Positions 18,601-40,789 are shown, counted from the stretch's first letter. The stretch is DNA of 41,374 nucleotides from an uncultured Thermoplasmatales archaeon (GCA_964601295.1 CAZRMY010000004.1:1-41374); one strand, 5' to 3'. Notes: generated by a model from the letters alone, not told the origin. A program made the numbers and translations.

Positions 18601-21600
18601 TAGGTTGACAATATTACATCAATTTCGATTGTGGAATTTGGCTGCAATTCACCAGTTGTAGGTGTAACTGACAGCCAGCCATCAGTGTTGGTATATGTTA
18701 TATCAAACGTGAGATTTTCACCAGCAATTTCATCATTACCAATAGTTAATGTTTCTGTAACCGTTAGTTCACTTGGTGAGTTAATAGAATAACTCTCAGG
18801 GTCAATCCATATTTCAGGTACAAGTGTGACATCAAATGCATAAGGATCTGCAGCTCCTATATAGGGATCATCAATGATATTCCCTCCAGTGTCTTCAGCA
18901 TGAATGTAGTATTGTACTGTTTCACCGCAGGGCTGAGGCGGTATGTATGCTTGATAATAGTCTCCACCTACATGTGTCATTTGAACAGAGTTCCATGCTC
19001 GTTCATCGAGCTGCCAATACAAGAGCACGGATTCGGGTATGAGATCAAGATCGCTGTAAGGTACAACACGTGCGTTTACCAGGAATCCATTATCACTAGG
19101 GAAGCCATTTGACAGTGGTGTATGATCGATGTATATCATATCGATATCTGGTATCCCTTTGGCGCGACAGTGTATTGCATCAGTGGTTTCCCAAGAGCCA
19201 GTAAAACCAAGGACTTCATAACCGGGCATTGCTGTCTGATATGAGGTAATTGCATCGTCATCCCATGATGACGTTCCATCCATAGGGACAAATACTTTGT
19301 CATTTAAAATAAGTGAGTTAATATATGGTTCACCATCTGGTGTGTACACCCGTACTATGTCATAAGGTGTTCCATAACAACTTATTTGATTTTCAAAGTA
19401 TGACACCGCTGCTTCAAGTTCATCATATTGCGAGTGACTCGGTGGCACCTCGATTATCATAATGGTATCCGGTGATAATAGTTTCGCCCAACAGTCAATA
19501 TGTTCTATGTATTCACCTAAAGCATCATCGGCAACATGATAGGTATGGATTCCAAGATAATCAGCTACCATCTCATCAATGTCGCTTGGCGTCAAACCAG
19601 GGTTTTCTGTGTATACAAGATCAGTTGATATTGCTATACCTTCTCCATCGGTCATATAGTTGCCTCCCGCGGTTTCGAGGTTCATAAACGATAGATTTAA
19701 ACCTTGGTCAACCGCAAAAGCATTTGGGATCGCATTGTCATCCGGACGGGGCCGATTGTAGGTGAAATCTACGACTTCTAACTCATTATTGACATTGTAA
19801 ATAAACCACGGTCCGTAATCACGTGTCCAATAGGTATCTGATGGAGCTATTAGAAAATCTGTATTTGCCATGGTAACACCCGCTGAGCTGTACATGTTCT
19901 CTACAGTGGTTTGTTCAGAGGTTGAGGCGACTATCGTGGTAACAATTACGTCCTCTGACATCTCAGCAATCATATTTACCGGCAGACCAAGTGGATATCT
20001 AACTAGCACCCCATCCATATGTTCGAATTCAGCTGGCTGCCGTTTCGATACCACCTGAAGCGTGGTAATATACGTCTCAGTGTTATAACCGGTTATCACT
20101 AAATCTACTTCATCTATATCACTGATAGGTTCAGTAAAGGTAATAGTAGCTTGACCATTTTCATCGGTATACGCGTAGCCTAATAGTTCATAGTTGTAGG
20201 AGATTGCGCATAACGCATTATCCAGTCCCACAACTTCAACATCAAATGATGTTACGCCTTCCAGAATTATTGGGTTATGGTTAACCGTGATATCTGCAGG
20301 GGTATCAGTTCGCACCTGTAGGGAAGGATCACCAAAGATTGTCCATTGATCGGTTACGTAATAGTAGCTGGACCCATATTCATCATTCATAAGCATACAG
20401 CCTTGAAAGGAAAGCGCACCAAATGAATGTTGAATATTAGCAGGATACGTTTCGACTAAAATATCATTCATTTCATCTTGCGCAGCCATCGGTGGATCCC
20501 ACGGTTGATTATCTGATCCAGCGAAAACAGCGATAGCACCTGTTGGCTCACCATTATGTACCTCTCGCATTAATTTCTCTGCAAAACATGCATCATAATC
20601 ATCAAACATACCACATTTACAGGCAACAATCCACATAAACGGCAACATATTGTCATTAGTGAGATCGTCGATATCATCATTTGTATACCAGCTACCTGCT
20701 GAATTCCAATAAAATTCTTGAGGGCCTCCATGACCACAGTAATTGAGAATACTTCGCCCTTCATTTAACACGAGATTCAGATCAGCTGCAGAGGGGTTAC
20801 CATCAGCGTCCTGTCCACCTTGTGAACCACCGTATATTTCATCAACTTGAGAATACGTATATCCAAGGAGATCAGTACGGATATTTCGTATATGTTCCCA
20901 ATCCCATTCATTGTCATCTCCTGTTCCTTCATCTGAACCAACCCCAACACCTTTCGCATACCAATCATCTCCTAATTGCGGATATTTTTCATATTCAATC
21001 GTTCTTTCCACCTGGGTTTGTAAATCAGCTGTGTTTGAAGCAGAGAATCTTCCGATAAATAGATCCGGATAGTGATCTATACCATCAACATAGGTATAAC
21101 TTGGATCGGATGCTGCATAGCTTGATTCCAGAGATGGAATCTGCGCTATATCGCCGACTAACAAAACAAACGTTAACCCATTTGTCAAGTAATAGTTTTC
21201 AATATATGTGTCAATCGCAGAGGCAGTTGTTCCTACATCAGAAACATTAACCATTTCAGTTGGAATGCCTTTCATGTTTTTCCATTCCAAAAATGGCACC
21301 ATTGTGTCCCAAAAAGTGTCATAGGTTATAATCAACATATTTCCAATTTCAGTAACTGGTGTATACGTTAATCCCGGTTCGCCATAGTTTACAAAATGTC
21401 TCTTATATATCTGCTCAAAGTCAGCATCTATCTTCTCAGGGAACTCAGAGCGATGGATACAATTCAAAGTATCTTCAACATTTGTTTTTACAACTTCTAA
21501 GGTAATATCTGTATAAACTCTAAGTTGATGGTGTATTGGATTATACTGGAAGGGATATACTGTTACTACCTGCCCTCTGTAATCACGTAAAATATAAGGA

Positions 21601-22344: not shown

Positions 22345-25300
22345 TTAATCACAGCAGTTTGACACTGGCGGGGGTCCATTTGAGAAAATGTAATTTATGA
22401 GATGCACAGCATCGCTTACATTGATTTGACTATCTCCATTTGCGTCGGCGCTGCATACTGGATGTGGCTCTGGACTGCCGGGGGTAAACACATAATTGAT
22501 GATAAACACAGCATCGCTTACATTGATAATTCCATCGGTGTTAACATCGCCACATAGTACGGGTACTTCTTCCATTATTATTGTTGCTCCAGTGTAGTCA
22601 TTTGAGGTGTCTTGGTCATCAGGGAGTAATGTAGTTATTGTTGCGCCATATGCGCCTGCAGTGGCATGCCATGGTGGGTTAAATTCGACTACAGCGGTAG
22701 AATATGCTTCAACCTCCACTGTTGCTTCACAGGTGTAGACGATGTCACCGGGGTCTCGAGGGTTTTCTGAAATCAGTAATACGTCGTCGATGTACCAGTA
22801 ATCGATATAAAAATAATAGCCTTCGTATTCGAATCTTACCTGGGTTGCGGGTCCTGAGTCAAAACCGATGTCTATGGTGACATATTCCGGTCCGACATTA
22901 TTGTAAATAGGGTTAGACCATGGGGTTACATCAGTCCAGGTATCTGTAGTTTCAGCTCGGGTGTATACTCTACAATAAATGGGATCGTCACTGTTTTCAT
23001 AATCATCGATCCAATGGTTGAATCGCAGTTGAAGTTGTGCGGCACCGACGGTATCTACGGGTGGTGTCTCTATGTACGAGTAGTCACCATTGATGGAATT
23101 CCAATGGAGCCGCATTTCGGGTGCGGTACCACCAGCTCTATTGTTTTGATATGTCTGCCATTCATTTGCATCTGGTTCTTCGACAGTCCAACCTGCTGGT
23201 GGGACGCCTCCAGAAAAATTTTCTGATAAGAACGTTCCGAAAATCCCTTCAACAATTGAACAATTTACTAGGACATTGGTTTGATCTATGCTCCCAAAAT
23301 TTTCTATGACCGCACTAATCGTGTGTACACCTGCCGGTAGTGGTTCTAACGGATAATTTAAGCCTATGGGACCCACATTGTTTTCATATACAACATTAAG
23401 CACAACGGGGATGATAACCGTGGCTTCATCAAGATCATTAGTTGTTAATACAACAGATGCCTCGTAGATTCCTTCTGCTAAACCATTTGTATCAAATACG
23501 ACATCAAGAGTTTGCTCCATTCCAACCGGGACGAAAAGTGTTTCTGGTGTAACAGACAGCCAGCTAGGGTTATCTAGAAAGGAGACGTCTCCGGTTAACT
23601 GCGCTTCAGCATATTGTTCATTCCCTACTATTATGCTTTCGGTATGTATTACGCCTTCATTGAGATTAATGGAATACTCTGTTGGTGACACCCAAATGTC
23701 GGGCACAGGGATTACTTCAACTTCTTTAGACATAGCATTGTTTAGGATATAGTTTTCTCCAGGTATGGGTACTACCTCTACATTAACATTATGAAAACCA
23801 AAATCAGGGAACCAATCAAAGCTAACTTGATGTGATTCACCGAGATCAAGAGAGTTAATGAATTCAACATCCTCTGTTGTGCCATCAATGACAAAATTGA
23901 CAGTTATCGCACTTTCGTTATTTAATCCACAGTTAAGCACATTGGCAGTAATTGTAACTGATTGATTATGTGGCAATATATCTTCTACGTCTAAATCTAG
24001 CACACCAATATCATGATCATCAGCAGGTTGTTTAATTCGCTGCGCTGGATCACCGAAGAGCAGGCAGCTTTCGATAACGCCTCGCCAGGTTTGATCATAA
24101 TAATCCCATCCTATCGTCGGGGCCATAGTATCTTTTGACCATGCCTGGGCTCGCCCCATCTGCCAGTTGTCTCTGTCATTTGAATTGTTGGTGATGTCAA
24201 ACAAGTAATCCCAGAAACTTTTTTGTTGCACTGCGCTACTTGAGTTAGTGGTATAATAATTACCCCAACCGTACCCAGTATTGTACACACATGCAAACGC
24301 AAGCTCGGTATCTGAATGAAACAACATGGAATGCAATACTCCATCTCCTGCAGCGCTCATGTCACCGCAGTGGCAGCCGTAATCATGTAGGAAGAATGGT
24401 TTTGTGTTGTGATACTGTGATTCCCAGTTATAATCATACACATCCATCGACATATATTCATTTGCATGAGCTATCGCACTAATCAGCGTTACCTGATCAT
24501 TGTTAATCGCGCTTTTTAACCCATTGATCGCTGAGTATTCCGAGCCACCTGACCACCCAGGGTTAGGTGATTCTGCTGTCCATTTCACAGAAAGATCATA
24601 CGGTACTGCAGGGTTATTATTATTCCAGGTTTCAAACCCATATTGAAACCCAAGCCAGGTTGGATATGGTCCGCTATCTCCAGGGTAGGGTCCAAGGTAA
24701 TTAGCTAACCCTTTGATTGCACTATAATCAATAAAATCATCACCCTGTGCGCTCCAGCTGGTATCTCCACCATAAAAACCTGCATTATTTAGATACTCGG
24801 GGTCATAGGCATCCGCGTAATAGAAACTTTTTGTCATCCAGTTCGAAAGATCAAGGCCTGTGTCACAGGGGAGAGAACCAATGAATAACTCGGAGTATAA
24901 ATCAAACCCAGCGTCATTACTTTCTCCCCATTGATAATCAGAATCAGCATTAAAATTGTTATCTAGATTCGACCAATAAAGATCAGATTCGACATTCTCT
25001 TGGTATTCCCCAAGACCATAATGTAACAGTCTGCGAGGTATTCCGGCAACTCCTTCATGATCCCCAGCTATCAGAATATATTGCGTACCCCAATCCTGGT
25101 ATGCATCCTTACAAAATTCACGAATCTTAGCGGCAGTATCATTAAACAAACTTGTGGGATTCCAATAATCTGAACATGTTATAATATTTTCAACAGATAC
25201 TTTAGATGTTGATAATCCCTCAGCTTCTTTTCGACTGATAAAATCATCCCAAGTATATGCGGTACCTGAAAAATTCATCAACGATTCTCTGGTAATGATA

Positions 25301-26142
25301 ACATAGTCATACTCGTCACTTGAATCACAGAGACCACCAGAATAGCCGATATCACCTAATGGCAGAGTATTATACCTCTTCGTACCATCTGGGTTACACA
25401 CTAAACTCTCTACCCAAACTCTATCATCGGCTCTGTTACGATAGAATTGATTAATATAATCAGTGTTTTCCATTTCTATTTCCACGGTTAATTCAGAATA
25501 ATAAGAGAGCTTTCCATCAGATGGAATATACTCAATAGGGTTAAGCGAAATATCACATATCGTATAACCACGACAATACCCAATATGAAAATCCTCATAT
25601 CTTTTCTTGGGAAACACCTCAGATGAATCATAAACCTGCGAATCAATCCTAATTTCAAAAGACTCTTTCTTCAAGCCTAAAGGCATTGAACTCTGATACG
25701 GCAAAATAGGAGTATCAATAAGATCAAAATCCTTAGCATCTATATCATGGGACTGACCAGATACATCCAACGAGATAACCTTTTTCATAGGAGGTAGTAA
25801 TATTTTCGCGAAACTCACGGGTAAAAATGGCTGACCGACACCTCTTCCGACATTCATCACACCCGGCATACTTATTTTAGTAAATTCATGCGAAGGCAAA
25901 ATAACATGATCTAACACTGGTTCACTAAATTGAAAAGTATAACTGAGTACGTCCAGTTGTTCCTTTTGTACCCCTAGCGCATCATTGTTTTCATAAAAAG
26001 ATACCTGCTGATTTTCATTAACTATTATTCTATTTGACACGCCGATTGTTGCAGAGATTGATGTGAATATCAATACCGTGCATATCATTAAGCAAATGCC
26101 TTTTCCACTTTTTTTACTATCTGTAAAAATTTTATCTCTCAT
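22345..26142 (-). CDS. Large secreted C25-family (gingipain-like) protein with CARDB-like and Ig-like domains, CARDB-like domain with nested jelly-roll insert, and dockerin-like tail
   Basis: Uninterrupted 1265-aa ORF. Signal-like ICLMICTVLIFTSISATIG. SD-like GGGGGT at 26150-26155. Propeptide-like GVGQPFLPVSFAKILLPP and CDISLNPIEYIPSDGKLSYYSELTVEIEM. C25-like YILIAGDHEGVAGIPRR. aa 921-1265 are colinear with aa 1851-2195 of the neighbouring giant protein. Confidence 0.88.
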   Translation of the reverse strand: MRDKIFTDSKKSGKGICLMICTVLIFTSISATIGVSNRIIVNENQQVSFYENNDALGVQKEQLDVLSYTFQFSEPVLDHVILPSHEFTKISMPGVMNVGRGVGQPFLPVSFAKILLPPMKKVISLDVSGQSHDIDAKDFDLIDTPILPYQSSMPLGLKKESFEIRIDSQVYDSSEVFPKKRYEDFHIGYCRGYTICDISLNPIEYIPSDGKLSYYSELTVEIEMENTDYINQFYRNRADDRVWVESLVCNPDGTKRYNTLPLGDIGYSGGLCDSSDEYDYVIITRESLMNFSGTAYTWDDFISRKEAEGLSTSKVSVENIITCSDYWNPTSLFNDTAAKIREFCKDAYQDWGTQYILIAGDHEGVAGIPRRLLHYGLGEYQENVESDLYWSNLDNNFNADSDYQWGESNDAGFDLYSELFIGSLPCDTGLDLSNWMTKSFYYADAYDPEYLNNAGFYGGDTSWSAQGDDFIDYSAIKGLANYLGPYPGDSGPYPTWLGFQYGFETWNNNNPAVPYDLSVKWTAESPNPGWSGGSEYSAINGLKSAINNDQVTLISAIAHANEYMSMDVYDYNWESQYHNTKPFFLHDYGCHCGDMSAAGDGVLHSMLFHSDTELAFACVYNTGYGWGNYYTTNSSSAVQQKSFWDYLFDITNNSNDRDNWQMGRAQAWSKDTMAPTIGWDYYDQTWRGVIESCLLFGDPAQRIKQPADDHDIGVLDLDVEDILPHNQSVTITANVLNCGLNNESAITVNFVIDGTTEDVEFINSLDLGESHQVSFDWFPDFGFHNVNVEVVPIPGENYILNNAMSKEVEVIPVPDIWVSPTEYSINLNEGVIHTESIIVGNEQYAEAQLTGDVSFLDNPSWLSVTPETLFVPVGMEQTLDVVFDTNGLAEGIYEASVVLTTNDLDEATVIIPVVLNVVYENNVGPIGLNYPLEPLPAGVHTISAVIENFGSIDQTNVLVNCSIVEGIFGTFLSENFSGGVPPAGWTVEEPDANEWQTYQNNRAGGTAPEMRLHWNSINGDYSYIETPPVDTVGAAQLQLRFNHWIDDYENSDDPIYCRVYTRAETTDTWTDVTPWSNPIYNNVGPEYVTIDIGFDSGPATQVRFEYEGYYFYIDYWYIDDVLLISENPRDPGDIVYTCEATVEVEAYSTAVVEFNPPWHATAGAYGATITTLLPDDQDTSNDYTGATIIMEEVPVLCGDVNTDGIINVSDAVFIINYVFTPGSPEPHPVCSADANGDSQINVSDAVHLINYIFSNGPPPVSNCCD
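22348..22557 (-). other. Dockerin-like double repeat, Cys-bracketed, C-terminus ...SNCCD
   Basis: CGDVNTDGIINVSDAVFIINYVFTPGSPEPHPV / CSADANGDSQINVSDAVHLINYIFSNGPPPVSN / CCD (aa 1196-1265). Confidence 0.65.
24028..25320 (-). other. Divergent peptidase C25-like domain of the 1265-aa protein (aa ~275-705)
   Basis: YVIITRESL, YILIAGDHEGVAGIP, candidate His context LISAIAHANEY, candidate Cys context LHDYGCHCGDM, and terminal LLFGDPAQRI (compare TIFGDPSLQV in the paralog). Confidence 0.55.
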
Positions 26143-26870: not shown

Positions 26871-27743
26871 ATGGCAATCGTGATAGTTTCTTCTTTTGAG
26901 GATCCTGCTGGAACGAATATTACCTCCCAACTACAAAAACTTTCATCTTGGCACACGATAGATTCATTTAACAATCAGCCGGTTTATGCATCCGATGAGT
27001 TTTCACAGGTATTGTTGACGTTTATTGATGATCGAACAATTTTCCATGAGCATCTTGATAAAGAGTTACAAAGCGCTCTTAGGATATCTATTGATACATT
27101 GGTTATCGCTTCAAGGCATACTAGTAAAAAGGGCATCCCAACGCTTACAGTGCATCCTATTGGGAATTATGGCAACGCTGATTTTGGCGGGCGATCGCAC
27201 ACGTTAGTTCCTGCTGCACCAGTCATAATGACTTCGTTACTGCGTAATATTAAAACTAACACTCGAAATAGCAATCTCGATCATCAGGTTTGTTTCGAGG
27301 TAACACATCATGGCCCACTCGTAAGTGTACCAACAGTGTATATAGAAATAGGAAGTACTGAGGTAGAATGGAAGAGATTTAAACCCGCGGAGGTCATCGC
27401 CCAATCAATTTTGGATTTTTTTATAGCTCAGAAAAATGGAAGAAACTTGCAGAACCATAATCACGTGTTAATTGGTATAGGTGGGGGCCATTATGCACCT
27501 CGGTTTTCTGATGTTGCCTTTCAGAAAAAGGTGGTTTTTGGTCATATGATTCCATCGTACCAAGTGAATGCAGGGAATATCTTGGAAGATATCCTTGAAA
27601 AGACTGTTCAGTCGACTCCAAGGGTGTCGGGCGTGTATTTCCATAAAAAAGCGTTACGTAAATCATGGATACATACGGTGTCCTCATGGTTTACTGATAA
27701 AGGGATTGCCATAGTATCAAGTAAAGATTTACCTGATTTATGA
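26871..27743 (+). CDS. dtdA: D-aminoacyl-tRNA deacylase, archaeal DtdA (Dtd2) type
   Basis: 290-aa ORF. N-terminus MAIVIVSSFEDPAGTNI, internal TVHPIGN and LIGIGGGHYAPRF are typical of the archaeal tRNA_deacylase family. Confidence 0.7.
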   Translation: MAIVIVSSFEDPAGTNITSQLQKLSSWHTIDSFNNQPVYASDEFSQVLLTFIDDRTIFHEHLDKELQSALRISIDTLVIASRHTSKKGIPTLTVHPIGNYGNADFGGRSHTLVPAAPVIMTSLLRNIKTNTRNSNLDHQVCFEVTHHGPLVSVPTVYIEIGSTEVEWKRFKPAEVIAQSILDFFIAQKNGRNLQNHNHVLIGIGGGHYAPRFSDVAFQKKVVFGHMIPSYQVNAGNILEDILEKTVQSTPRVSGVYFHKKALRKSWIHTVSSWFTDKGIAIVSSKDLPDL

Positions 27744-28667
27744 ATGAAGGTTTTTAGTGGCCAGTAGATGTGCTTGTCGTAAGGGTTCAGGTTGTTTATA
27801 TGTACAGAGGTTCTTAACGATAGTATTTGCGGTTGAAAAAGAGATGTTGTTTCCTGGTGAGATGTAAATGGGCTTTGTTGCGCGAGGTGAACTATGTAGA
27901 AGGGTCCCCCGTAGTTCATTTTGATAATATATTTTGTTGTCTTGAGGCTTCCCAATAAGTAGATTTTTGGCAACACCTATCGTTGGTATTTGCGTTGTTG
28001 CTCCTACGTGTGCGGCTAATCCAAGTTTATATGGGTGAAGGATGCCATTGCCATCCAGTAGTAATACTGAGGGTTTTGTTTGTATTTTCTTTAAAAGAAT
28101 GGTGATAAAGGGGAGTTCCCGGAAGGTTAGATATGTGGGGATATATGGGAAGGTGCTGCAGTGAAATATGAGATGTTTCTCGATGATTTCTTTGGTACGA
28201 TAGTTGAGTGCGATGTATGCGCCACAGGCTTTTTCAAAAGCGTTTTTCGGGTATGCGACATCTATTCCTGCAACTATGTTGATATTGGTGAATGTGTCTT
28301 GGAGTGTAATTTTTTTTGATAGTTGTATTTGTTTCTCACGAAGTTTTTTAAGGGGATAGGTGGTGGTAAAATCATCAAAAAATACTTGTTGAAAGTCATC
28401 GATGTAGCCGTTGGTCACGGTGATGTTGTCTTGCTGTAAACGTCTGATTTTATCTTGTATCCCTCGTCCGAATCCTCCGAGTCGTCCATCGGAGTGTACT
28501 ATTTTGTAGCAGGGCATGGTATCTGCGTTGGGGTTTTGGTTCATCATGTACCCCACGGCTCTTGATGCGCGTATGTCTCCTAGGGCTTTAGCTACTGCAC
28601 CGTATGAGGATATTTTCCCGGGTGGGATTTGACGGACGAGATCGTAGGTGTATTCGAAAAGGTTCAT
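27738..28667 (-). CDS. nfi: Fusion protein: O6-alkylguanine-DNA alkyltransferase-like DNA-binding domain (variant PCYK site) + endonuclease V
   Basis: 309-aa ORF. aa 1-~90: VRQIPPGKISSYGAVAKALGDIRASRAVGYMMNQNPNADTMPCYKIVHSDGRLGGF (AGT C-terminal domain; PCYK at nt 28503-28514). aa ~100-309 carry EndoV motifs VAGIDVAY, YLTFRELP, LLLDGNGILHPYKLGLAAHVG and PTIGVAKN. Confidence 0.82.
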   Translation of the reverse strand: MNLFEYTYDLVRQIPPGKISSYGAVAKALGDIRASRAVGYMMNQNPNADTMPCYKIVHSDGRLGGFGRGIQDKIRRLQQDNITVTNGYIDDFQQVFFDDFTTTYPLKKLREKQIQLSKKITLQDTFTNINIVAGIDVAYPKNAFEKACGAYIALNYRTKEIIEKHLIFHCSTFPYIPTYLTFRELPFITILLKKIQTKPSVLLLDGNGILHPYKLGLAAHVGATTQIPTIGVAKNLLIGKPQDNKIYYQNELRGTLLHSSPRATKPIYISPGNNISFSTANTIVKNLCTYKQPEPLRQAHLLATKNLHS

Positions 28668-29596: not shown

Positions 29597-30598
29597 TTGA
29601 GTGAGACGGGTACGTGGCAATCAATGTTAAAACACTATCATGCTATTCTTGAGGAGCATGCACTACCACGGTATGTGCTGTCGAAGTATGTGCCTGTGGA
29701 TTACTCTGGCTCTGAATCTGTTTCGGGTTTATGGGAACTTCATAAAAAGGCTTTTGGTGGGTACAAGGTTGAAGATGTTTGTCCAGATCAGTCGCTATTG
29801 GATTTAAAAAGGGAGCTTGCGCAGCATATTTTTTCGTCTTGTGTTTTTTGTGAGCATCGATGTCAAATAGATCGAAATCAACAGGCTGGGGCATGTGGCG
29901 TACAAAAAGCTCGTATTGCCTCTGAATTTTTACATATGGGCGAGGAACCGTTTTTGATTCCTTCGTATACTGTTTTTTTCTCAGGGTGTACGTTTCAGTG
30001 TGTGTTTTGTCAGAATTGGGATATTAGTCAGCAGCTGTGTGGACTGGAGGTTGCGCCAGATAAGTTAGCTGAGTTGATTACAGTGAGGACGCGTGAGGGT
30101 GCGCGGAATGTGAACTGGGTTGGGGGTGATCCTACATCCAATCTTTTGTATATTCTTGTAGTTTTAAATTCATGTACTAGTGATATCCCTCAGGTGTGGA
30201 ATTCAAATATGTATTGTTCTGAGGAAACTATGCGATTGTTAGATGGTGTGATTGATGTCTTTTTAACTGATTTTAAATATGGGAATAATGGGTGTGCGCA
30301 ACGATTGTCAAAAGTACCTAATTATTGGGAGGTGGTTACCAGGAATCATCGGTTGGCAGGTGAGCAAGCAGAGGTGGTGATACGTCATCTGGTGTTACCG
30401 GGGCATGTTGAGTGTTGTTCAAAACCGGTTATGAGATGGATTGCTGAATTTTTGCCTGAAGCCGTGGTGAATGTGATGGGTCAGTATCATCCTGCGTATC
30501 AGGCTCAGCGTTATGACGAGCTTGCATTTCCGGTTGATCAACGAGAGGTTGAGCAGGTAAAAGAGTATGCACAGCAGCGGGGGTTGTTTCTTGTTTAA
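29597..30598 (+). CDS. Radical SAM protein, PflX-like (COG1313-type homolog of pyruvate formate-lyase activases)
   Basis: 333-aa ORF (TTG start in the track; alternative ATG at 29624). N-terminal Cys cluster CVFCEHRCQIDRNQQAGACG. Radical SAM motif FFSGCTFQCVFCQNWDISQ. Confidence 0.68.
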   Translation: MSETGTWQSMLKHYHAILEEHALPRYVLSKYVPVDYSGSESVSGLWELHKKAFGGYKVEDVCPDQSLLDLKRELAQHIFSSCVFCEHRCQIDRNQQAGACGVQKARIASEFLHMGEEPFLIPSYTVFFSGCTFQCVFCQNWDISQQLCGLEVAPDKLAELITVRTREGARNVNWVGGDPTSNLLYILVVLNSCTSDIPQVWNSNMYCSEETMRLLDGVIDVFLTDFKYGNNGCAQRLSKVPNYWEVVTRNHRLAGEQAEVVIRHLVLPGHVECCSKPVMRWIAEFLPEAVVNVMGQYHPAYQAQRYDELAFPVDQREVEQVKEYAQQRGLFLV

Positions 30599-32340: not shown

Positions 32341-32513
32341 TAGAACGCTTGATCGTTTGTGAAGCACTGTTAATCCCTCCTCATAGGTACACAGTGTGTG
32401 ACTGTAGTATATGGGAGATAACGCTGTCGATATTTAACTTTTTGTCGCTGGTGATACCTAAATGTTATTAAAACTTTCATTGCTTACCCTTTTTTATCTG
32501 GGGTGAATCCTGG

Positions 32514-33236
32514 TTGAACTGGCGGTATATTGACACGGGTTGTGCGGATCCCTGGTATGTGACCGCAGCCGATGAAGCACTTGCAGTAGCCCGGCAGCAA
32601 AATCGTATCCCTAACACGATACATTTGTATCAACGAGCGCCCTCAGCAGTCTCGATGGGCTGTTCGCAGTCCATAAATGATATTAATGCAGATTACTGTC
32701 AGCATCATAACATCCCGCTTATACGTCGAAGTTCAGGTGGCGGATCGATTTATACAGACCGCGGCTGTTTAATTTATAGTCTTGTTTTTAACCCTCTTGA
32801 CCAGGGGTTATCTACACCGCAGATAGTCTTTGATCGTGTATGCGGATGGCTTGTTAACGCTTTGAAATCATTACATATTACCACGACGCATAAACCTCCA
32901 AATGATATTCTTCTTAACGCCAAAAAGATCTCAGGATCCGCGCAACGACGTAAACCGCCCATAACACTCATCCATGGCACCCTGCTTGTAAACACGGACT
33001 TATCCGTGATGGAAAAGGTTCTCCCGCACTCTGTTACACCGGTCACGACACTGTACAAAGAAATACCAACTGATTCCCCTTCTTTTGATCAGCTTAAAAA
33101 CGCATTAATTAGCACCAGTGAACACTCTTTTAATATGCATGTTTGCCCAGGTGCGTTTACCCCGTATGAACAGCAATTAATTAACAAATTACTTGATACT
33201 CGTTACCATTGTAATGAATGGACTACCAAGAGATGA
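32514..33236 (+). CDS. lplA: Lipoate-protein ligase A-like enzyme, catalytic (BPL_LplA_LipB) domain only
   Basis: 240-aa ORF, TTG start. Motifs NTIHLYQRAPSAVSMGCSQS, LIRRSSGGGSIYTDRGCLIYSLV and KKISGSAQRR (lysine of the acyl-adenylate site context). No C-terminal accessory domain. Confidence 0.72.
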   Translation: MNWRYIDTGCADPWYVTAADEALAVARQQNRIPNTIHLYQRAPSAVSMGCSQSINDINADYCQHHNIPLIRRSSGGGSIYTDRGCLIYSLVFNPLDQGLSTPQIVFDRVCGWLVNALKSLHITTTHKPPNDILLNAKKISGSAQRRKPPITLIHGTLLVNTDLSVMEKVLPHSVTPVTTLYKEIPTDSPSFDQLKNALISTSEHSFNMHVCPGAFTPYEQQLINKLLDTRYHCNEWTTKR

Positions 33237-34123
33237 TATACACCATGAATATCCATGTGACAAAAATCAATGCGTTTGCCCCTTCTTTTTCTGGGGGCAA
33301 CCCGGCAGGTGTCGTAATTCATCCACCTGAGCATTTACGTGATGAGCAGATGAAACGGATTTGTCAACAATTATCTGTATCAGAGACTGCTTTTGTGTTT
33401 CCAAGTGATAAAGCAGATTATACACTACGCTTTTTTTCTCCTGAAACAGAAGTTGCTCTCTGCGGTCATGCGACTATTGCTGCGTTTCATAAGATAGCCT
33501 GGAGTCAAATGCAACCTAGTGAATCATCCGTTACTCTCACTCAGCAGACTAACGCAGGGATTTTACCCGTTCACCTATACTTTTCTGATGGCAAATGTAC
33601 ACGGGTGATGATGACTCAGGCAACCCCACAAGTAGAACAGCTATCCTTGGATTATGACGTGATTGCAACAGCACTGGGCGTAACTAGTGATCAGATTGAT
33701 ACCTCCCTTCCGCCGCAGCGTGTATCCACCGGGTTATTCACGTTGCCCGTGTGCATATCCTCCTTGCAGGTATTACGCAGGATCACCCCGGATTATCAAC
33801 TTGTAAAAAAGATATGTAACCAGCAGGGTGTTGGAAGCATGCATGTGTTTTCATTTGAAACAATTGAAACAGACTCAGTGTATCATGCTCGTAATTTCGC
33901 TCCAGTTTATGGAATAAATGAAGACCCAGTAACTGGTACGGCAAATGGTGCTACCTGTTGGTATCTTCGTGTAAATAACATTATCACCGGTTCCAATTTT
34001 ATGTGTGAGCAGGGAGATGTTCTTAATCGTTCAGGGCGCGTATTGGTAGCTATCAACGATAATCACGTTAAGGTTGGTGGTCAGGCAAAACAAGTGGCAG
34101 AATATGATATAGAGGTGGATTGA
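33233..34123 (+). CDS. PhzF-family isomerase/epimerase-like protein
   Basis: ORF from 33218; ATG 33233 overlaps the lplA stop (ATGA). Motifs INAFAPSFSGGNPAGVV, SETAFVFP, FFSPETEVALCGHATIAA and DPVTGTANG. Confidence 0.75.
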   Translation: MIYTMNIHVTKINAFAPSFSGGNPAGVVIHPPEHLRDEQMKRICQQLSVSETAFVFPSDKADYTLRFFSPETEVALCGHATIAAFHKIAWSQMQPSESSVTLTQQTNAGILPVHLYFSDGKCTRVMMTQATPQVEQLSLDYDVIATALGVTSDQIDTSLPPQRVSTGLFTLPVCISSLQVLRRITPDYQLVKKICNQQGVGSMHVFSFETIETDSVYHARNFAPVYGINEDPVTGTANGATCWYLRVNNIITGSNFMCEQGDVLNRSGRVLVAINDNHVKVGGQAKQVAEYDIEVD

Positions 34124-35340
34124 TAGTGTTATCAAATCAAGAAAAAGATGTTCTCTCTCATGCGATTTGCCCGTTGAATCTAGATCCTGAGGTGTTAGGG
34201 CAGTTCAAACTTCCTAAGGATATTAGTATTTATGATAGTACATTACGTGATGGGGAGCAGATGCCGGGGGTGTCTTTCACTGATGAACAGAAACTTTGTA
34301 TCGCCCGTAAACTCGATGAAATAGGTATCCCTGAAATCGAGGCGGGTTTCCCCGTTGTTTCAAAAAACGAGCTTAAAGCCGTACAGGCTATTTCACGTGA
34401 GGGTTTGGATGCTCGTATTCTGGTATTATCACGGTTACGTAAGCTGGATATTGATGCAGCTATAGATTCTGAGGCGGATGTGATTTTGTTGTTTATCGCT
34501 TCGTCACCATTACATCTGCAGTATAAACTGCATATAACCCCTGCTGAGTTGAAACAACGGGTGATTGAGTCTATTGATTATGCGCAGGATCATGGGGTAA
34601 CAGTGAGTTTTAGTACTGAGGATAGCACGCGTACGCCGTTATCGTTTTTAGAGGAGCTTGTGTGTCTTGCAGCTAAGCAGGGGGTGCAGCGTATTGGGTT
34701 TACTGACACGGTAGGTTGTGCAACGCCGCAGGCGATCCAGTTTTTGTATAATCGTATGTCGCAGTTGGTGTCTCTTCCTTTTTCAGCGCATTTACATAAT
34801 GATTTTGGGCTTGCATTGGTTAATGCGCTTACTGCGTTGAATGCAGGTGCACGATATGTGTGCACCACGGTGAATGGATGGGGTGAGCGTGCCGGGAATG
34901 TACCCTTGGAACAACTGGTGATGGCAATTCAGACGTTGTATGGCCGTGATCTTGGGATTGATACCACTGGTTTTTCTGCGTTATCCCAGATGGTCGCTGA
35001 TTTTTCTGGTCTCCCTGGCCCCCGGTTGCAGCCTTTTGTCGGCTCGCAGGTGTTTACGCATGAGTCAGGTATCCATGTTGCGGCTATGCTGGAGAACCCC
35101 CGAACTTATGAGGCAGTATCGCCAGCTCTGGTGGGTAACACACGGCATTTAGTCATCGGAAAGCATACGGGTCGTCATATTATTAAATGGAAGTTGCAGC
35201 AGCAGGGCATTGAGGTCTCCACGGGTATGCTTGATAGAATTATTACTGAGGTTAAGAGCAGGGGCGAGCGTAATGGTGCTCTCTCTGATGAGGAGTTGTC
35301 AAGTATTGCGTTAACGGTTAAACAAGGCGGTAGATTATGA
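34120..35340 (+). CDS. Homocitrate / (R)-citramalate / 2-isopropylmalate synthase family enzyme (HMGL-like domain, no LeuA regulatory domain)
   Basis: 406-aa ORF. TTG 34120 overlaps the upstream stop (TTGA); GTG 34126 is an alternative start. Motifs IYDSTLRDGEQMPGVSF, SAHLHNDFGLALVNALTAL, VNGWGERAGNVPLE and FTHESGIHVAA. Confidence 0.8.
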   Translation: MIVLSNQEKDVLSHAICPLNLDPEVLGQFKLPKDISIYDSTLRDGEQMPGVSFTDEQKLCIARKLDEIGIPEIEAGFPVVSKNELKAVQAISREGLDARILVLSRLRKLDIDAAIDSEADVILLFIASSPLHLQYKLHITPAELKQRVIESIDYAQDHGVTVSFSTEDSTRTPLSFLEELVCLAAKQGVQRIGFTDTVGCATPQAIQFLYNRMSQLVSLPFSAHLHNDFGLALVNALTALNAGARYVCTTVNGWGERAGNVPLEQLVMAIQTLYGRDLGIDTTGFSALSQMVADFSGLPGPRLQPFVGSQVFTHESGIHVAAMLENPRTYEAVSPALVGNTRHLVIGKHTGRHIIKWKLQQQGIEVSTGMLDRIITEVKSRGERNGALSDEELSSIALTVKQGGRL

Positions 35341-36209
35341 GTAAGGTGTTTCGTGCGTATTATGTCTGGCCAAAGTTCCCATCAGTGTCTATGTCTGGGA
35401 ATGCATGTATGCTGTCTTGTAAACATTGTAACCATACCTATTTAGCTGATATGCAGCAGCTTACTAAACCTGCTGATCTATTTGCGGCAGCGCGTCGTTT
35501 TGCTTCGGAGGGTGCGATTGGTTTGTTGTTAAGTGGTGGTTGTGATGATCACGGTGAAATGCTTAATCTTCGTCGGTTACTGCCAACGATTCGAAAGATT
35601 AAAGATGAGACTGAGTTGGTTATTAAATTGCATACCGGACTTGTAGATCGCACGCTGGCTGAAGAGATTGTGTCTGCAGGAGTTGATATTGCTTCAACAG
35701 AAGTTGTGGGCGATAATGAGACAATACAGGATATCTTTGATTTTTCTGCATCTGTTGAATCATACCGGAACACCTTGGTATATCTGGAAGACGCCGGGAT
35801 GCCATTTATTGTTCCTCATGTTTGCATTGGGTTGCGATATGGGAAAGTACGTGGTGAAAGAACGGCGTTACAGATAATTCATAACTCATGTGACCCTGAG
35901 TTGTTAGTGATGATTGTATTTCGTCCAACTAAGGGAACGGCATTAGAAAATACACCGCCTCCGGCATCGCAAAGTGTCGCCAAAGTTATCGGTATGGCAA
36001 AAAATATGTTTCCAGATAAAGAAATCTCTCTTGGTTGTATACGCCCGCGTAATCAACATCGGCAGGAAATTGAATCTGCTGCGCTGAACGCTGGAGTCAG
36101 TCGCATGGAAATACCTTCTAAAAAGACCCTTCAGCTTGCTCAATCAATGGGGTATACCATTAAACATGTTGATGGATGCTGCGCGCTACCGCAATCGCTT
36201 GAACCTTAA
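35337..36209 (+). CDS. Radical SAM protein, biotin-synthase-like small archaeal type, Cys-rich
   Basis: 290-aa ORF. ATG overlaps the upstream stop (ATGA, 35337-35340). CxxxCxxC motif SMSGNACMLSCKHCNH (nt 35406-35429). Six further Cys (SGGCDD, PHVCIG, HNSCDP, SLGCIRPR, DGCCALP). Confidence 0.65.
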   Translation: MSKVFRAYYVWPKFPSVSMSGNACMLSCKHCNHTYLADMQQLTKPADLFAAARRFASEGAIGLLLSGGCDDHGEMLNLRRLLPTIRKIKDETELVIKLHTGLVDRTLAEEIVSAGVDIASTEVVGDNETIQDIFDFSASVESYRNTLVYLEDAGMPFIVPHVCIGLRYGKVRGERTALQIIHNSCDPELLVMIVFRPTKGTALENTPPPASQSVAKVIGMAKNMFPDKEISLGCIRPRNQHRQEIESAALNAGVSRMEIPSKKTLQLAQSMGYTIKHVDGCCALPQSLEP

Positions 36210-36232: not shown

Positions 36233-37279
36233 TTATACGCCCATAGTTACACGTAATAAATCCCGCAGTCCAGGTGAAAAACCTAGTATAAGGATACCGA
36301 TTTTCAGCAGGTTAACCAATCGTTGATTCCCCTGTAATTCTTTTTTGTACAATATATCAAACACGTAAATTATGACAATGATAAGAAGGAATTTGACAAT
36401 AGGAAATAATGGTCCCCAGATGTTCAGAAGCAGTTCTGATGCAGGGTGTTTCTCCGCGTAGGATAATCCCATGTTAAATGGATCTTTAATGCTTATGTAA
36501 CTGGCTAAACCGTCGATAAGATGACCAAACAGCATTGCAAGGTTTAGTGGGTTACCATATGGTTTGAGCTTCTCAGAATCGGATACTTTTTGGGATATAC
36601 TGTAGACGACTGCTATAATTGCACTGGTGATACCAATAACGATAAGAAACACATCGAATCTGACACCGGTGCTGATATTCCATTGATCACCAAGAATCCA
36701 CTGAGCGATTAACCAAAAGCTAGGAATGAGGAAGATAAATCCTCCAAGAAAAACCGTTTTATTAATCGTAAGATGGTGAACGTGTTTTTTACGTTCAAAA
36801 TAGTATCCAAGCAGTACAAAGAACAGTGCATATACGGCGATTTGCAGGTAGATTAACGGTGAAATAAACCAGTACACCACAGGTGCGGTGAAATACCCGG
36901 TGTCCTCAAGGGTTCGTCCGACGGGTCCAAAAATAATGTAAGGGAGTAGTGCCAGAGCAAATTGCCAGTTAATCTGGATGTCAAGTTTTTTGAAAAGCTG
37001 ATAAATACCGTAAAGTGCGCCAATGAGTAGAACACCGTAGCTGATCTCTGAGATAAGCGTGTATCCCTCTTGGGCGACTACACCGTTGTGTATTGCCGTT
37101 TGAGTACCCGGGGTTGCATCAGCGACGACTGGCCCCCAGTAGTATTTCCATATCCATTGGTCGTAGAACAAGGTGGGCAGCAGTACACAGCCTAGTGCGA
37201 TGATACTAATGATGGCTGCGATGAGCCCTACGAAGATGGCGGTCCTGTGTTGATGGTAGAAAGCTAGTATTTTTTTCAT
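36233..37279 (-). CDS. Polytopic membrane protein (possibly DUF63 family)
   Basis: ORF 36233..37417 trimmed to ATG 37279 (MKKILAFYHQHRTAIFVGLIAAIISI), which removes the overlap with divergent egsA. About 8-9 hydrophobic segments. Motifs FGHLIDGLASYISI, YAEKHP and GFSPGLRDLLRV. Family assignment is from memory only. Confidence 0.5.
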   Translation of the reverse strand: MKKILAFYHQHRTAIFVGLIAAIISIIALGCVLLPTLFYDQWIWKYYWGPVVADATPGTQTAIHNGVVAQEGYTLISEISYGVLLIGALYGIYQLFKKLDIQINWQFALALLPYIIFGPVGRTLEDTGYFTAPVVYWFISPLIYLQIAVYALFFVLLGYYFERKKHVHHLTINKTVFLGGFIFLIPSFWLIAQWILGDQWNISTGVRFDVFLIVIGITSAIIAVVYSISQKVSDSEKLKPYGNPLNLAMLFGHLIDGLASYISIKDPFNMGLSYAEKHPASELLLNIWGPLFPIVKFLLIIVIIYVFDILYKKELQGNQRLVNLLKIGILILGFSPGLRDLLRVTMGV

Positions 37280-37295
37280 ATGTAAAAGCTGAAAG

Positions 37296-37315
37296 AAAAA
37301 TATAATATATAATAT
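37296..37315. promoter_or_regulatory. A/T-rich TATA-like block (AAAAATATAATATATAATAT) in the 63-nt divergent spacer between the membrane protein gene and egsA
   Basis: Lies about 20-35 nt from both start codons (37279 minus, 37343 plus), compatible with a bidirectional promoter with short or absent leaders. Confidence 0.35.
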
Positions 37316-37342
37316 CCGTGGTTTACCGGTGTGGATTAAACA

Positions 37343-38437
37343 ATGGAACGATTTACCAAATATAAAACCATGGTGTTTCCACGAGAGGTCATCGTGGGTC
37401 ATAATACTACTGAACAAATTAAAGGTCTCTGTAACAGAATTACGATCGGGAAACGCATTCTCATTGTTGTTGATAAAAACACGCGGAAGATCTCAGGTAA
37501 TAAAGTCGCTAAACTTCTGTCAAGTTCAGGCTATGAAGTCAACATGGAAACAATTTCTACGCCGATAGTCCGTAAGGATCGCTATGTCGCGTGGCCGACG
37601 ATGAAAGATGTGAATCATCTTATTCAAATAGAGAAGAAAACGAATGCTGATTTATTCATCGGTGTTGGTGGCGGTTCAGTAATTGATGTTACGAAATTGG
37701 CTTCTGCGGAGTTGTCAAAACCGTTTATTAGTGTGCCCACATCTGCTGCGCATGATGGGATTGCATCTCCTCGTGCATCGGTGAAAGAAAAAAAGGGTTC
37801 TATTTCTAAAACCGCGCGACCGCCGATTGCTGTTTTAGCGGATACTTCAATAATATCAAAGGCGCCGTATCGTATGCTTGCTTCAGGGTGCGCAGATGTT
37901 ATTTCTAATTTATCAGCGGTGAAAGACTGGGAGCTTGCACATCGGCTTAAAAATGAGGAGTTCAGCACGTTTGCTGCGTCGTTGTCAACCACCGCATCGC
38001 AATTGTTGATTAACGAAGCAGAGGATATCAGATCAGGGTTAGAAGAAGCAGTATGGCAGGCGGTTAAATGCATGATTGTCTCAGGTGTTGCCATGAGTGT
38101 GGCAGGTAACACGCGTCCGGCATCAGGTGCAGAGCATATGTTTTCCCACATGCTTGATCGTATCGCCCCGGGTCGAGCGATGCATGGCGAGCAATGTGGG
38201 GTTGGTGCACTTATGATGATGTATCTGCATGGGGAGGACTGGGAGGAGGTCCGTGATGCTCTGGAGGGTGTTGGTGCTCCTACGACTTCTAAAGAACTTG
38301 GTGTTCCCAAGAAATCAATTGTGCAGGCGTTAATGCAAGCTCAGGAGATACGACCTGAGCGATATACGATTTTAGGTGAAAATGGGCTAACAAAAGATGC
38401 TGCAAAAAAACTAGCTAAAATAACTGGGGTAATCTAA
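37343..38437 (+). CDS. egsA: Glycerol-1-phosphate dehydrogenase [NAD(P)+]
   Basis: 364-aa ORF (alternative start ATG 37370, MVFPREVIVG). Motifs IGVGGGSVIDVTKLAS, SVPTSAAHDGIASPRASV, GCADVISN, SGAEHMFSH and HGEQCGVG. Confidence 0.87.
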   Translation: MERFTKYKTMVFPREVIVGHNTTEQIKGLCNRITIGKRILIVVDKNTRKISGNKVAKLLSSSGYEVNMETISTPIVRKDRYVAWPTMKDVNHLIQIEKKTNADLFIGVGGGSVIDVTKLASAELSKPFISVPTSAAHDGIASPRASVKEKKGSISKTARPPIAVLADTSIISKAPYRMLASGCADVISNLSAVKDWELAHRLKNEEFSTFAASLSTTASQLLINEAEDIRSGLEEAVWQAVKCMIVSGVAMSVAGNTRPASGAEHMFSHMLDRIAPGRAMHGEQCGVGALMMMYLHGEDWEEVRDALEGVGAPTTSKELGVPKKSIVQALMQAQEIRPERYTILGENGLTKDAAKKLAKITGVI

Positions 38438-39619: not shown

Positions 39620-40789
39620 TTATAGTCCTGCTTCTTTTTTCAAAAGTTTAGCTTTATCTGTTTTTTCCCAGGTGAAATCAGGATCATTTCTGCCAAAATG
39701 ACCGTATGCAGCGGTTTTTGTATATATCGGTCGAAGCAGATCCAGGGTTTCGATGATCTCACCAGGTGTTGTTGGGAAAAACTTGCGGATGAGATCTTCT
39801 ATGTGCTCGATGGGTATTTTATTAGTTCCAAAGCAGTTTATGTTAATGGATACCGGTTCAGCGACACCAATAGCGTAGGCGAACTGGAGTTCACAATGGT
39901 CTGCGATGCCTGCGGCGACAATGTTTTTTGCAATGTATCGAGCGGCATATGCCGCACTTCGATCTACTTTAGTAGGATCTTTTCCGGAGAACGCGCCACC
40001 ACCATGACGTCCAATGCCACCATACGTGTCAACGATGATTTTACGGCCGGTTAACCCTGCGTCTGCGTAGGGTCCTCCGCGGACAAACGCGCCAGTGGGA
40101 TTCACATAGATTTTAGTGTCTTTATCTATCCATTCTTTGCAGATAGGTTGGATAACATGGGTGACAATATCTTTTTTTATTTTGTTATGTGATATACCGG
40201 GGTCATGTTGTGTAGATACCACTATGGCATCAGCCCGGAGAGGTTTTCCGTTGTTATCGTATTCGATGGTCACTTGTGATTTCCCATCTGGTCTGAGATA
40301 TGAGATACTACCATTTTTACGGTTTTCACTAAGTTTTTTTGCAAGTTTATGTGCTAGGGCGATGGGTAGCGGCATGAGTTCTTTGGTTTCATTGCAGGCG
40401 TATCCGTACATCATCCCTTGGTCGCCGGCTCCTTGTTTTTTATGGAGGCCTTTTCCCGCGGTGACTCCTTGGGAGATATCAGGGCTTTGTTCTGTTATTT
40501 GTACCCACACCGAGCAGGTTTCCCATTCTATGCCATATTCTGATTTAGTGTATCCAATGTTTTTGATTACCTCGCGGGCGACAGTGGGGACATCAACATA
40601 GGCTTTGGTGGTCATTTCGCCGAAGACCATGATGCCACCGTTTTTTGTCCCGGTTTCTACTGCTACGCGTGAGGTGGGATCTTGGCGGAGTGCTTCGTCA
40701 AGGATAGCATCTGATATCATGTCGCATATTTTATCAGGGTGCCCCTCGGTTACTGATTCTGAGCTGATGAGTATTTTTCTTTTTGCCAT
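39620..40789 (-). CDS. metK: S-adenosylmethionine synthetase, bacterial/eukaryotic MetK type
   Basis: 389-aa [59 protein letters not shown] and [20 protein letters not shown] lies 10 nt upstream of the ATG. Confidence 0.93.

Follow-up and report, generated by a model that had tools for sequence, protein, structure and literature searches.

A homocitrate-synthase-family gene embedded between putative lipoylation genes in uncultured Thermoplasmatota

Introduction

Glycine cleavage and the 2-oxoacid dehydrogenases depend on lipoate. This study deals with four genes at positions 32514-36209 (plus strand) of a 41,374-nucleotide stretch of DNA from an uncultured Thermoplasmatales archaeon (GCA_964601295.1, CAZRMY010000004.1:1-41374; the whole stretch is called the window below). 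They encode an LplA-like ligase, a PhzF-family protein, a synthase of the homocitrate-synthase family and a radical S-adenosylmethionine (SAM) protein of the LipS1 family, and are referred to as the cassette. The closest described system is the Lpl(AB)-LipS1/LipS2 route of lipoate assembly, reported in 2020-2023 from Thermococcus kodakarensis and, as sLpl(AB), from sulfur oxidisers (PMC9585515, PMC10332631). In this route LipS2 acts first and converts octanoyl-lysine to 8-mercaptooctanoyl-lysine, LipS1 then adds the C6 sulfur, and LipS1 of T. kodakarensis accepts only 8-mercaptooctanoyl-lysine (PMC9585515, PMC10332631). Where LipS1 is the only such enzyme, the C8 sulfur must accordingly come from somewhere else. 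Free octanoate is presumed to be the substrate of the ligase, and archaea generally have no acyl carrier protein (ACP) (PMC9585515, PMC10332631). Because the pathway papers assume free octanoate and at the same time note this general lack of ACP, the origin of the archaeal C8 chain is open.

The cassette resembles the Lpl-LipS1/LipS2 pathway in that an LplA-type ligase gene accompanies a LipS1 gene, with the LipS1 ligands and the ligase core conserved. It differs in that LplB, LipS2 and GcvH are missing from the locus, in that a synthase gene, with or without a PhzF gene, is inserted between ligase and LipS1, and in that its LipS1 proteins form a clade of their own. Clusters of the order LplB-LipS1a-LipS1b from Thermoplasmata are also close, as they likewise belong to the Thermoplasmatota and their LipS1 proteins represent the sister clade, but they possess LplB and a second LipS1-type gene and no synthase. 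The synthase belongs to the same family as the enzymes of the methanogen AksA-AksD/E-AksF and of the LeuA/CimA elongation pathways (HMGL-like and HCS_D2 domains, no regulatory domain); unlike the Aks system, which makes precursors of coenzyme B and pimelate, the cassette has no adjacent homoaconitase or dehydrogenase gene and a Leu/Ser substrate pocket. Finally, the LipM/LipB plus LipA pathway also ends in a lipoylated lysine, and the cassette ligase resembles LipM in having no C-terminal domain. However, the cassette contains no LipA, and its ligase matches LplA models and not those of LipM or LipB.

A sequence-only reading of the window had not recognised this gene combination as a described pathway. 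For the ligase and LipS1 half this view has to be corrected, because the radical SAM protein belongs to the LipS1 family of the published pathway, whereas the embedded synthase is indeed not described. In the literature searched, no paper connects lipoate assembly with a PhzF gene or with a gene of the homocitrate/isopropylmalate-synthase family, and no link was found between Thermoprofundales and lipoate, between AksA and lipoate or between 8-mercaptooctanoate and 2-oxoacid elongation. New here is the presence of a synthase gene between two lipoate genes, without LplB, LipS2 or GcvH within 10 kb.

Results and Discussion

Organization of the cassette

Archaeal housekeeping genes of the window include those for glycerol-1-phosphate dehydrogenase, UPF0179 and DUF63, and its relatives are metagenome-assembled genomes (MAGs) of Thermoplasmatota. 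The lineage DHVEG-1 is the same as Marine Benthic Group D (MBG-D, Thermoprofundales), and the window is attributed to a sediment archaeon of this group. The cassette-bearing MAGs QMST01 and QMTN01 have been classed as Thermoplasmatota; E2; DHVEG-1 (PMC10332631, supplementary table).

ORF calling shows that four open reading frames (ORFs) on the plus strand fill 32514-36209, neighbours overlapping or lying at most 8 nt apart. These are the ligase (32514-33236, TTG start, 240 aa), the PhzF-family protein (three alternative starts at 33218, 33233 and 33245, end at 34123), the synthase (34120-35340, TTG start, 406 aa) and the LipS1-family protein (35337-36209, ATG start, 290 aa). Three 4-nt start/stop overlaps had been claimed, and all of them can be read directly in the sequence: ATGA at 33233-33236 for ligase/PhzF, TTGA at 34120-34123 for PhzF/synthase and ATGA at 35337-35340 for synthase/LipS1. 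Two of them may nevertheless be short gaps. The PhzF start is ambiguous: the match to the family profiles starts with the ATG at 33245, and with this start the overlap would become a gap of 8 nt. For the synthase, the public gene call has a length of 404 aa, in agreement with a GTG start at 34126, and would leave 2 nt. Whichever start sites are used, the four genes are packed without intergenic space.

The sole real intergenic gap ahead of the four genes, at 32368-32513, may contain a promoter and leader on the plus strand. An AT-rich TTATTAAAA stretch is located at about 32466-32474, some 40 nt upstream of the TTG at 32514, and a Shine-Dalgarno-like GGGGTGA follows at 32500-32506, 7 nt before the same TTG. 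On the other side, the convergent DUF63 gene ends 23 nt past the last cassette stop. The cassette had also been judged more GC-rich than the 7-15 kb region, and the values are 44.8% and 40.0%; the difference is however not specific for the cassette, because the whole 30-41 kb stretch has a GC content of 44.3%.

Conservation across genomes

A scan with a LipS1 alignment, in which each GTDB species was represented by one genome, yielded 49 of the related loci (L numbers below), and the four window proteins were mapped onto them. Among the GTDB species representatives of Thermoplasmatota, about 16 show the order ligase-(PhzF)-synthase-LipS1, and for two of these the published table gives E2/DHVEG-1. 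All four genes are present in this order in L007-L011, L013, L014, L016 and L020 (with the contig-truncated L009 and L015) and, found via the synthase, in L001, L005 and L056. The PhzF gene is missing from L018, L019, L021, L051 and L053, which have a three-gene order. In L012, from the complete genome CP070724.1, AT-rich non-coding DNA (L012:6800-7935) replaces the ligase gene, while PhzF-synthase-LipS1 is intact.

In 18 related loci the junctions are tight, either as overlaps (-3, -7, -10) or as gaps of +4 to +11, and they stay overlapping across about 50-60% protein identity. This recurrence is more than chance. The four-gene cassette is one operon, and the earlier claim of a single coupled unit, made from the window alone, is thus borne out by the ORFs, by their junctions and by the related loci.

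L019 and L021 keep the three-gene core amid different and unrelated flanks, in which no Aks or Leu partners but geranylgeranyl-reductase-like, FIST, KaiC, TraB and DHBP-synthase genes are encoded. Because these flanks differ, the conservation of the three-gene core goes beyond simple block synteny. A further case is L058, where ligase, synthase and LipS1, again without PhzF, are found on a high-GC contig (52%) in an unrelated context whose genes are entirely different from those around the other cassette loci; the three proteins share 36%, 53% and 54% identity with their window counterparts, respectively. In this locus (L058:2742-5003) the ligase gene is preceded by a gene for a 366-aa radical SAM protein (variant_rSAM 80 bits, MSMEG_0568-like 73 bits, LipS2 only 46 bits), which is only remotely related to LipS2 and whose family also occurs in clusters with methanogenesis marker protein 11 and Aks genes (marker-11/Aks clusters). 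Further upstream in L058, in divergent orientation, is a radical SAM gene of HydE-like type (360 bits).

Synteny of the four families outside the window, on which the proposal of a functional unit had been made to depend, is therefore found in many DHVEG-1 genomes, and ligase-synthase-LipS1 in addition in a second lineage with unrelated flanks. The synthase is stably embedded between ligase and LipS1 in many genomes and in two gene contexts.

The ligase and the LipS1-family protein

The family calls of the sequence-only reading (LplA-like, PhzF-like, homocitrate-synthase family and radical SAM) all hold in profile searches. The ligase matches Pfam LplA-B_cat with 133 bits and consists of the catalytic (N-terminal) domain only, without the LplB-like C-terminal domain; ligases of this type require LplB as a partner for adenylation. 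The large subunit of LplA from Thermoplasma acidophilum, a two-part ligase, is its best solved relative (E=1.7e-13). The motif RRxxGGG (R71, R72, G75-G77), K138, SGxA and HGT are kept, and in the alignment these positions are also conserved among the LplAs which have an LplB partner in canonical LipS clusters. Because the scores stay below the curated NCBIfam cut-offs (LplA_large 118 vs 480, TIGR00545 122.5 vs 280), the protein has to be regarded as a divergent LplA member; it reaches 118-133 bits on LplA models compared with about 19-21 bits on BirA models. Judged by family membership and by these residues, gene 1 is predicted to encode an Lpl-N-type acyl-lysine ligase.

The product of gene 4 scores 30 bits with Pfam Radical_SAM and 241.4 bits with the NCBIfam LipS1 model (NF053742, cut-off 230), compared with 46 bits for BioB (cut-off 225) and 23 bits for LipS2. 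Mutagenesis of T. kodakarensis LipS1 identified C27/C31/C34, H159, C230 and C276/C277 (PMC9585515). Gene 4 carries the radical SAM motif C24-x3-C28-x2-C31, and its H161, C234 and C281/C282 correspond to H159, C230 and C276/C277, the ligands of the auxiliary cluster in the T. kodakarensis enzyme; motif and auxiliary ligands are invariant in an alignment of the window, L001 and L005 proteins. Family and residues identify it as a probable LipS1-type radical SAM enzyme, which should insert sulfur into a protein-bound C8 acyl chain via an auxiliary Fe-S cluster. The suspected link of the cassette to lipoylation holds.

In a neighbour-joining tree the synthase-linked LipS1 proteins form one clade, the members of which have borderline NCBIfam scores (199-241). 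Its sister clade, here called LipS1a, is lipoate-linked: L139 has the order LplB-LipS1a-LipS1b (LplB 62.6 bits, just under the cut-off of 65; LipS1 225.7 and 267.2 bits), a LipS1a-LipS1b pair is present in L022, and LplB and LipS1a are fused in protein P0128 of L140. Because its sister is LipS1a, the cassette LipS1 descends from a lipoylation enzyme which is normally paired with a second LipS1-type protein.

These Thermoplasmata clusters (L139:5697-7774, L022:1529-4796, L140:1191-2345), with LipS1a and LipS1b in tandem, LplB ahead and no LipS2, suggest in their own right a two-LipS1 variant of lipoyl synthase. A connection between marker protein 11 and LipS1, which was suggested by L022, was dropped, as L139 and L141 have LplB or a zinc-ribbon protein in the upstream position.

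The synthase

HMGL-like (256 bits) and HCS_D2 (79 bits) domains place the synthase in the LeuA/NifV/AksA family of enzymes which condense acetyl-CoA with 2-oxoacids and have the DRE-TIM fold, and the Pfam search revealed no LeuA_dimer regulatory domain. The best PDB match is a Sulfolobus homocitrate synthase (6KTQ, E=6.5e-74). The metal-binding and catalytic motifs LRDGEQ and HxH are present, with R, D, G, E, Q and H-L-H invariant in the alignment. The protein remains under every NCBIfam cut-off, the NifV, LysS and all LeuA models included; the best scores are 439 vs 517 (PRK00915.1-2) and 420 vs 485 (LEU1_arch).

H103 and R163 of the Schizosaccharomyces pombe homocitrate synthase, which bind the distal carboxylate of 2-oxoglutarate, were mapped by alignment. 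At the corresponding positions the cassette synthase has Leu103 and Ser163, and this Leu/Ser pocket is shared by nearly all of 142 close relatives aligned, one of which has Gly for Ser163. Lysine-type homocitrate synthases have His/Arg in these positions, the isopropylmalate-synthase (IPMS)-like proteins of the metagenome sample Leu/Glu, and proteins of the CYTH-synthase-HacA type Leu/Ala, whereas Leu/Arg or Phe/Arg is present in synthases from full marker-11/Aks clusters. As the cassette synthase has neither the His/Arg of the lysine-type enzymes, which bind the 2-oxoglutarate carboxylate, nor the IPMS-type Glu at position 163, the term homocitrate synthase is a family label only. The earlier family assignment agrees with the domains and motifs, but the pocket residues fit neither lysine-type homocitrate synthase nor IPMS, and the protein is predicted to differ from typical leucine enzymes as well as from typical 2-oxoglutarate-specific ones.

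Relatives of the synthase outside the cassette (44-53% identity) adjoin HacA, marker protein 11 or XcbA-family genes. In detail, the neighbours of the Leu/Ala and Leu/Ser types include the homoaconitase large subunit, marker protein 11 (L080, 309 bits) and an XcbA-family protein (L062, 224 bits), and several synthases of the cassette clade are labelled "methanogen homocitrate synthase" by JGI. Because of these neighbours and names, the synthase probably belongs to a subfamily tied to cofactor-making 2-oxoacid elongation. The neighbour-joining tree of the synthases was midpoint-rooted and calculated without reference AksA, LeuA and CimA sequences, and it only separates the cassette from the standalone groups.

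A recurrent metagenomic operon with another synthase of AksA type was found in L100 (L100:3756-11582) and also in L098, L103, L108 and L118. It is headed by marker protein 11 (TiaS-like, 332 bits), followed by a radical SAM protein with remote similarity to LipS2, a thiamine-pyrophosphate-binding IOR-alpha-like protein, the AksA-like synthase with a pocket Arg, HacA, HacB, an XcbA-family/DUF7714 protein and an AksF-like dehydrogenase. From its gene content this operon looks like a complete coenzyme-B-type cluster with candidates for the unassigned late steps.

The PhzF-family protein

Gene 2 clearly encodes an isomerase-like protein of the PhzF family (DapF fold), with 203.7 bits for Pfam PhzC-PhzF and 210.7 bits for TIGR00654 (cut-off 76.2). 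Among solved structures the uncharacterised PhzF-family protein 3EDN matches best (E=5e-40), and E. coli YddE, likewise uncharacterised, is also near. The motifs SETAF, CGHAT and EDPVTGTA are present, and SETAF, containing the catalytic Glu of SETxF, was aligned to 3EDN and YddE. Neither the window nor the related loci contain phz genes, so that the context is not that of a phenazine operon. PhzF is an optional, dispensable member of the cassette, of which a three-gene version exists.

Partner genes

The canonical order LplB-LplA-LipS1-LipS2, often with GcvH, is found in Hadarchaeota, Bathyarchaeia, Hydrothermarchaeaceae, Altiarchaeia and WOR-3, with NCBIfam scores of 314-353 for LipS2 (cut-off 270) and 70.6 for LplB (cut-off 65). 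LplB, LipS2 and usually GcvH are adjacent in L025-L032, L034, L035, L037, L045 and L049. The GcvH query, the E. coli sequence, detected GcvH in seven canonical loci with E values from 9e-24 to 5e-39. In contrast, the 41-kb window, the surroundings of any cassette locus (up to 10 kb) and L058 contain no LplB, LipS2, second LipS1 or GcvH; hidden partners were sought by tblastn with four LipS2 and three LplB queries. A Thermoplasmata LipS1b query, used in a word-indexed search, listed no protein from the complete genomes CP070798.1 or CP070724.1, although the same search also missed the cassette LipS1 itself and is not exhaustive. In the published inventories of DHVEG-1 MAGs, the cassette-bearing B8-G13 has only LipS1 and Lpl, B18-G2, also cassette-bearing, only Lpl, its LipS1 being cut by the contig end, and B82-G9 only LipS1 and LplA, six genes apart (PMC10332631, supplementary table). 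Other DHVEG-1 families carry LipM-LplB-LipA (PMC10332631). From the local loci together with these inventories, LipS2 and LplB may be absent from the whole genomes.

Two other radical SAM genes of the window were considered as LipS2 and rejected. The one at 1775-2902 carries an HHH domain. The other, at 29597-30598 (+), encodes a PFL-activase-like protein of 333 aa (Radical_SAM and Fer4_12 domains); it is located two genes upstream of the cassette, with the gene for a large surface protein in opposite orientation between them, and has the same relative position in L005, L007, L008, L013, L014, L019, L053 and L056.

The cassette had been proposed as a possibly self-contained route which builds, modifies and attaches an acyl cofactor. 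This part of the proposal has to be given up: a homoaconitase-type isomerase, a dehydrogenase and a decarboxylase would be needed and none is nearby, in addition to the local absence of LplB, LipS2 and GcvH. Methanogen AksA, which accepts C5-C7 2-oxodicarboxylates, cooperates with homoaconitase (HacA/B) and homoisocitrate dehydrogenase (AksF), whose genes are often close by. HacA, HacB and AksF are not encoded near any cassette locus, and leu, ilv or lys genes are likewise not found near the cassette.

A possible role of the synthase in lipoylation

The most probable reading, to which we give about even odds, is that the cassette is a lineage-specific lipoylation operon in which the synthase supplies an acyl precursor by 2-oxoacid elongation, the other elongation enzymes being encoded elsewhere. 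The synthase would most likely condense acetyl-CoA with medium-chain 2-oxoacids, and a housekeeping isomerase, dehydrogenase and decarboxylase from elsewhere in the genome would lead on to a C8 acid, either octanoate or a functionalised C8 acid. The ligase would attach this acid and LipS1 would sulfurate it in the attached state, so that the operon would couple precursor supply to attachment in an organism without ACP-based fatty-acid synthesis. The synthase would thus presumably serve the same pathway as ligase and LipS1, and in one subclade the PhzF-like isomerase may belong to it as well. The operon represents a concrete, cloneable candidate for the missing step of C8-chain supply, and it offers a test whether LipS1 can work without LipS2.

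Several points weigh against a lipoylation role of the synthase. In archaea, genes of unrelated function may share an operon. The isomerase, dehydrogenase and decarboxylase of chain elongation are not encoded in or near any cassette locus, no acceptor protein has been identified for the cassette ligase, and the role of PhzF has no explanation in a lipoylation pathway. LipS2 and LplB may be encoded elsewhere in the genomes. In Methanomassiliicoccales-type genomes, synthases of about 53% identity stand alone beside a CYTH gene and share the pocket signature of the cassette synthase; because such standalone copies exist, the family has a life outside lipoylation. In the MAG STD1_48 (L055/L017, two contigs which overlap by exactly 127 nt) a distance of about 1.4 kb separates the ligase from a cassette-clade LipS1, and the genes in between are two unrelated ones, the synthase being missing. 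In addition, as the flanking synteny is kept in much of the clade, the conservation may partly reflect shared ancestry instead of selection.

Some of these points are shared by the main rival explanation, which we consider rather unlikely but by no means negligible. According to it, synthase and PhzF are passengers from unrelated metabolism (synthesis of amino acids or other cofactors), only co-transcribed and passed on as one block, and lipoylation is carried out by ligase and LipS1 together with an LplB and a second LipS protein encoded elsewhere. In Thermococcus, LipS1, LipS2 and both ligase subunits are unlinked, as the locus tags indicate, and LipS1-like genes stand alone in Methanoperedens loci, so that missing neighbours prove little. 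The solitary synthases of the same subfamily in other Thermoplasmata, the broadly kept flanks, the pairing of ligase and LipS1 without synthase in L055/L017 and the dispensable PhzF all agree with a passenger role. However, the synthase-LipS1 pair outlasts the change of both flanks, the loss of the ligase and the loss of PhzF, the order ligase-synthase-LipS1 recurs in L058 amid entirely different neighbours, and the overlap of the junctions persists over about 50-60% protein identity. Moreover, no leu, ilv or lys genes are nearby. If the synthase is a passenger, the cassette is a routine lipoylation locus in an uncultured lineage.

In a more far-reaching version of the lipoylation reading, to which we give only a small chance, no C8-sulfur insertase would take part in making lipoate. 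The 8-mercaptooctanoate would come from an Aks-like route, so that ligase and LipS1 would suffice and LipS2 would be unnecessary. In this scheme the AksA-like synthase would elongate 2-oxodicarboxylates one round past the coenzyme B pathway to 2-oxoazelate, and decarboxylation followed by aldehyde-to-thiol chemistry, as proposed for 7-mercaptoheptanoate, the product of the coenzyme B route, would yield free 8-mercaptooctanoate. The LplA-type ligase would then join it to the acceptor lysine, and LipS1 would add the C6 sulfur only, in line with the substrate limit of the characterised enzyme. If true, this would be a new de novo route to lipoate and would explain the origin of the C8 chain in archaea without ACP. 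Caution is required because related systems use two insertases, as indicated by the extra radical SAM gene of L058 and by the LipS1a-LipS1b pairs.

Slightly less probable still is a modification other than lipoate, in which the cassette-clade LipS1 and the AksA-like synthase would derive from a coenzyme-B-type pathway for acids ending in a thiol and would cooperate with LplA in forming a protein-bound monothiol acyl group or an unusual acyl-lysine. In favour of this idea, only one LipS-type gene is present locally, as in the published inventories of three DHVEG-1 MAGs, and no GcvH is nearby; the cassette LipS1 forms a separate clade with the borderline scores mentioned above; the nearest synthase relatives lie beside marker protein 11, XcbA-family and homoaconitase genes; and L058 adds a radical SAM protein of the marker-11/Aks-cluster family. 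On the other hand, the sister clade LipS1a is clearly lipoate-linked (LplB-LipS1a-LipS1b, LplB::LipS1 fusion), all LipS1 cluster ligands are conserved and the residues common to canonical LplAs are retained in the ligase. Methanogenesis is not known from DHVEG-1 archaea, and no use is known for a protein-bound monothiol acyl group.

A biotin route, with the synthase leading via 2-oxosuberate to pimelate, the radical SAM protein as a biotin-synthase analogue and biotin as the group attached by the ligase, is highly improbable and was rejected on profile scores, since, although LipS1 proteins have long been annotated as biotin synthases (according to the title of a paper), the BPL/LplA superfamily includes biotin ligases and the Aks pathway is a proposed archaeal source of pimelate, the radical SAM protein scores 241 bits for LipS1 and 46 for BioB (cut-off 225), the ligase reaches 118-133 bits with LplA models and only about 19-21 with BirA models, and bioF, bioA and bioD are absent from the window.

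Neighbouring genes and further observations

L055 and L054 have different upstream sequences and the same 127-nt end, which is the start of L017, as expected for a branch in an assembly graph; neither contains a synthase.

Downstream of the cassette, the longest ORFs for the DUF63 membrane protein (36233-37417, minus strand) and for glycerol-1-phosphate dehydrogenase (37343-38437, plus strand) have 75 nt in common at the 5' ends. The true start of DUF63 is probably further downstream, because the Pfam match begins at residue 113 only. The SAM synthetase encoded at 39620-40789 (minus strand) is of the bacterial/eukaryotic MetK type with the Pfam N, M and C domains, instead of which L005 and L141 carry the archaeal-type AdoMet_Synthase (PF01941).

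Upstream, an ORF at 27738-28667 (minus strand) fuses a methylguanine-DNA-methyltransferase DNA-binding domain with endonuclease V, and this fusion is also present in L005. Very long ORFs are located at 15603-22190 (minus strand, 2195 aa) and 22345-26142 (minus strand, 1265 aa).

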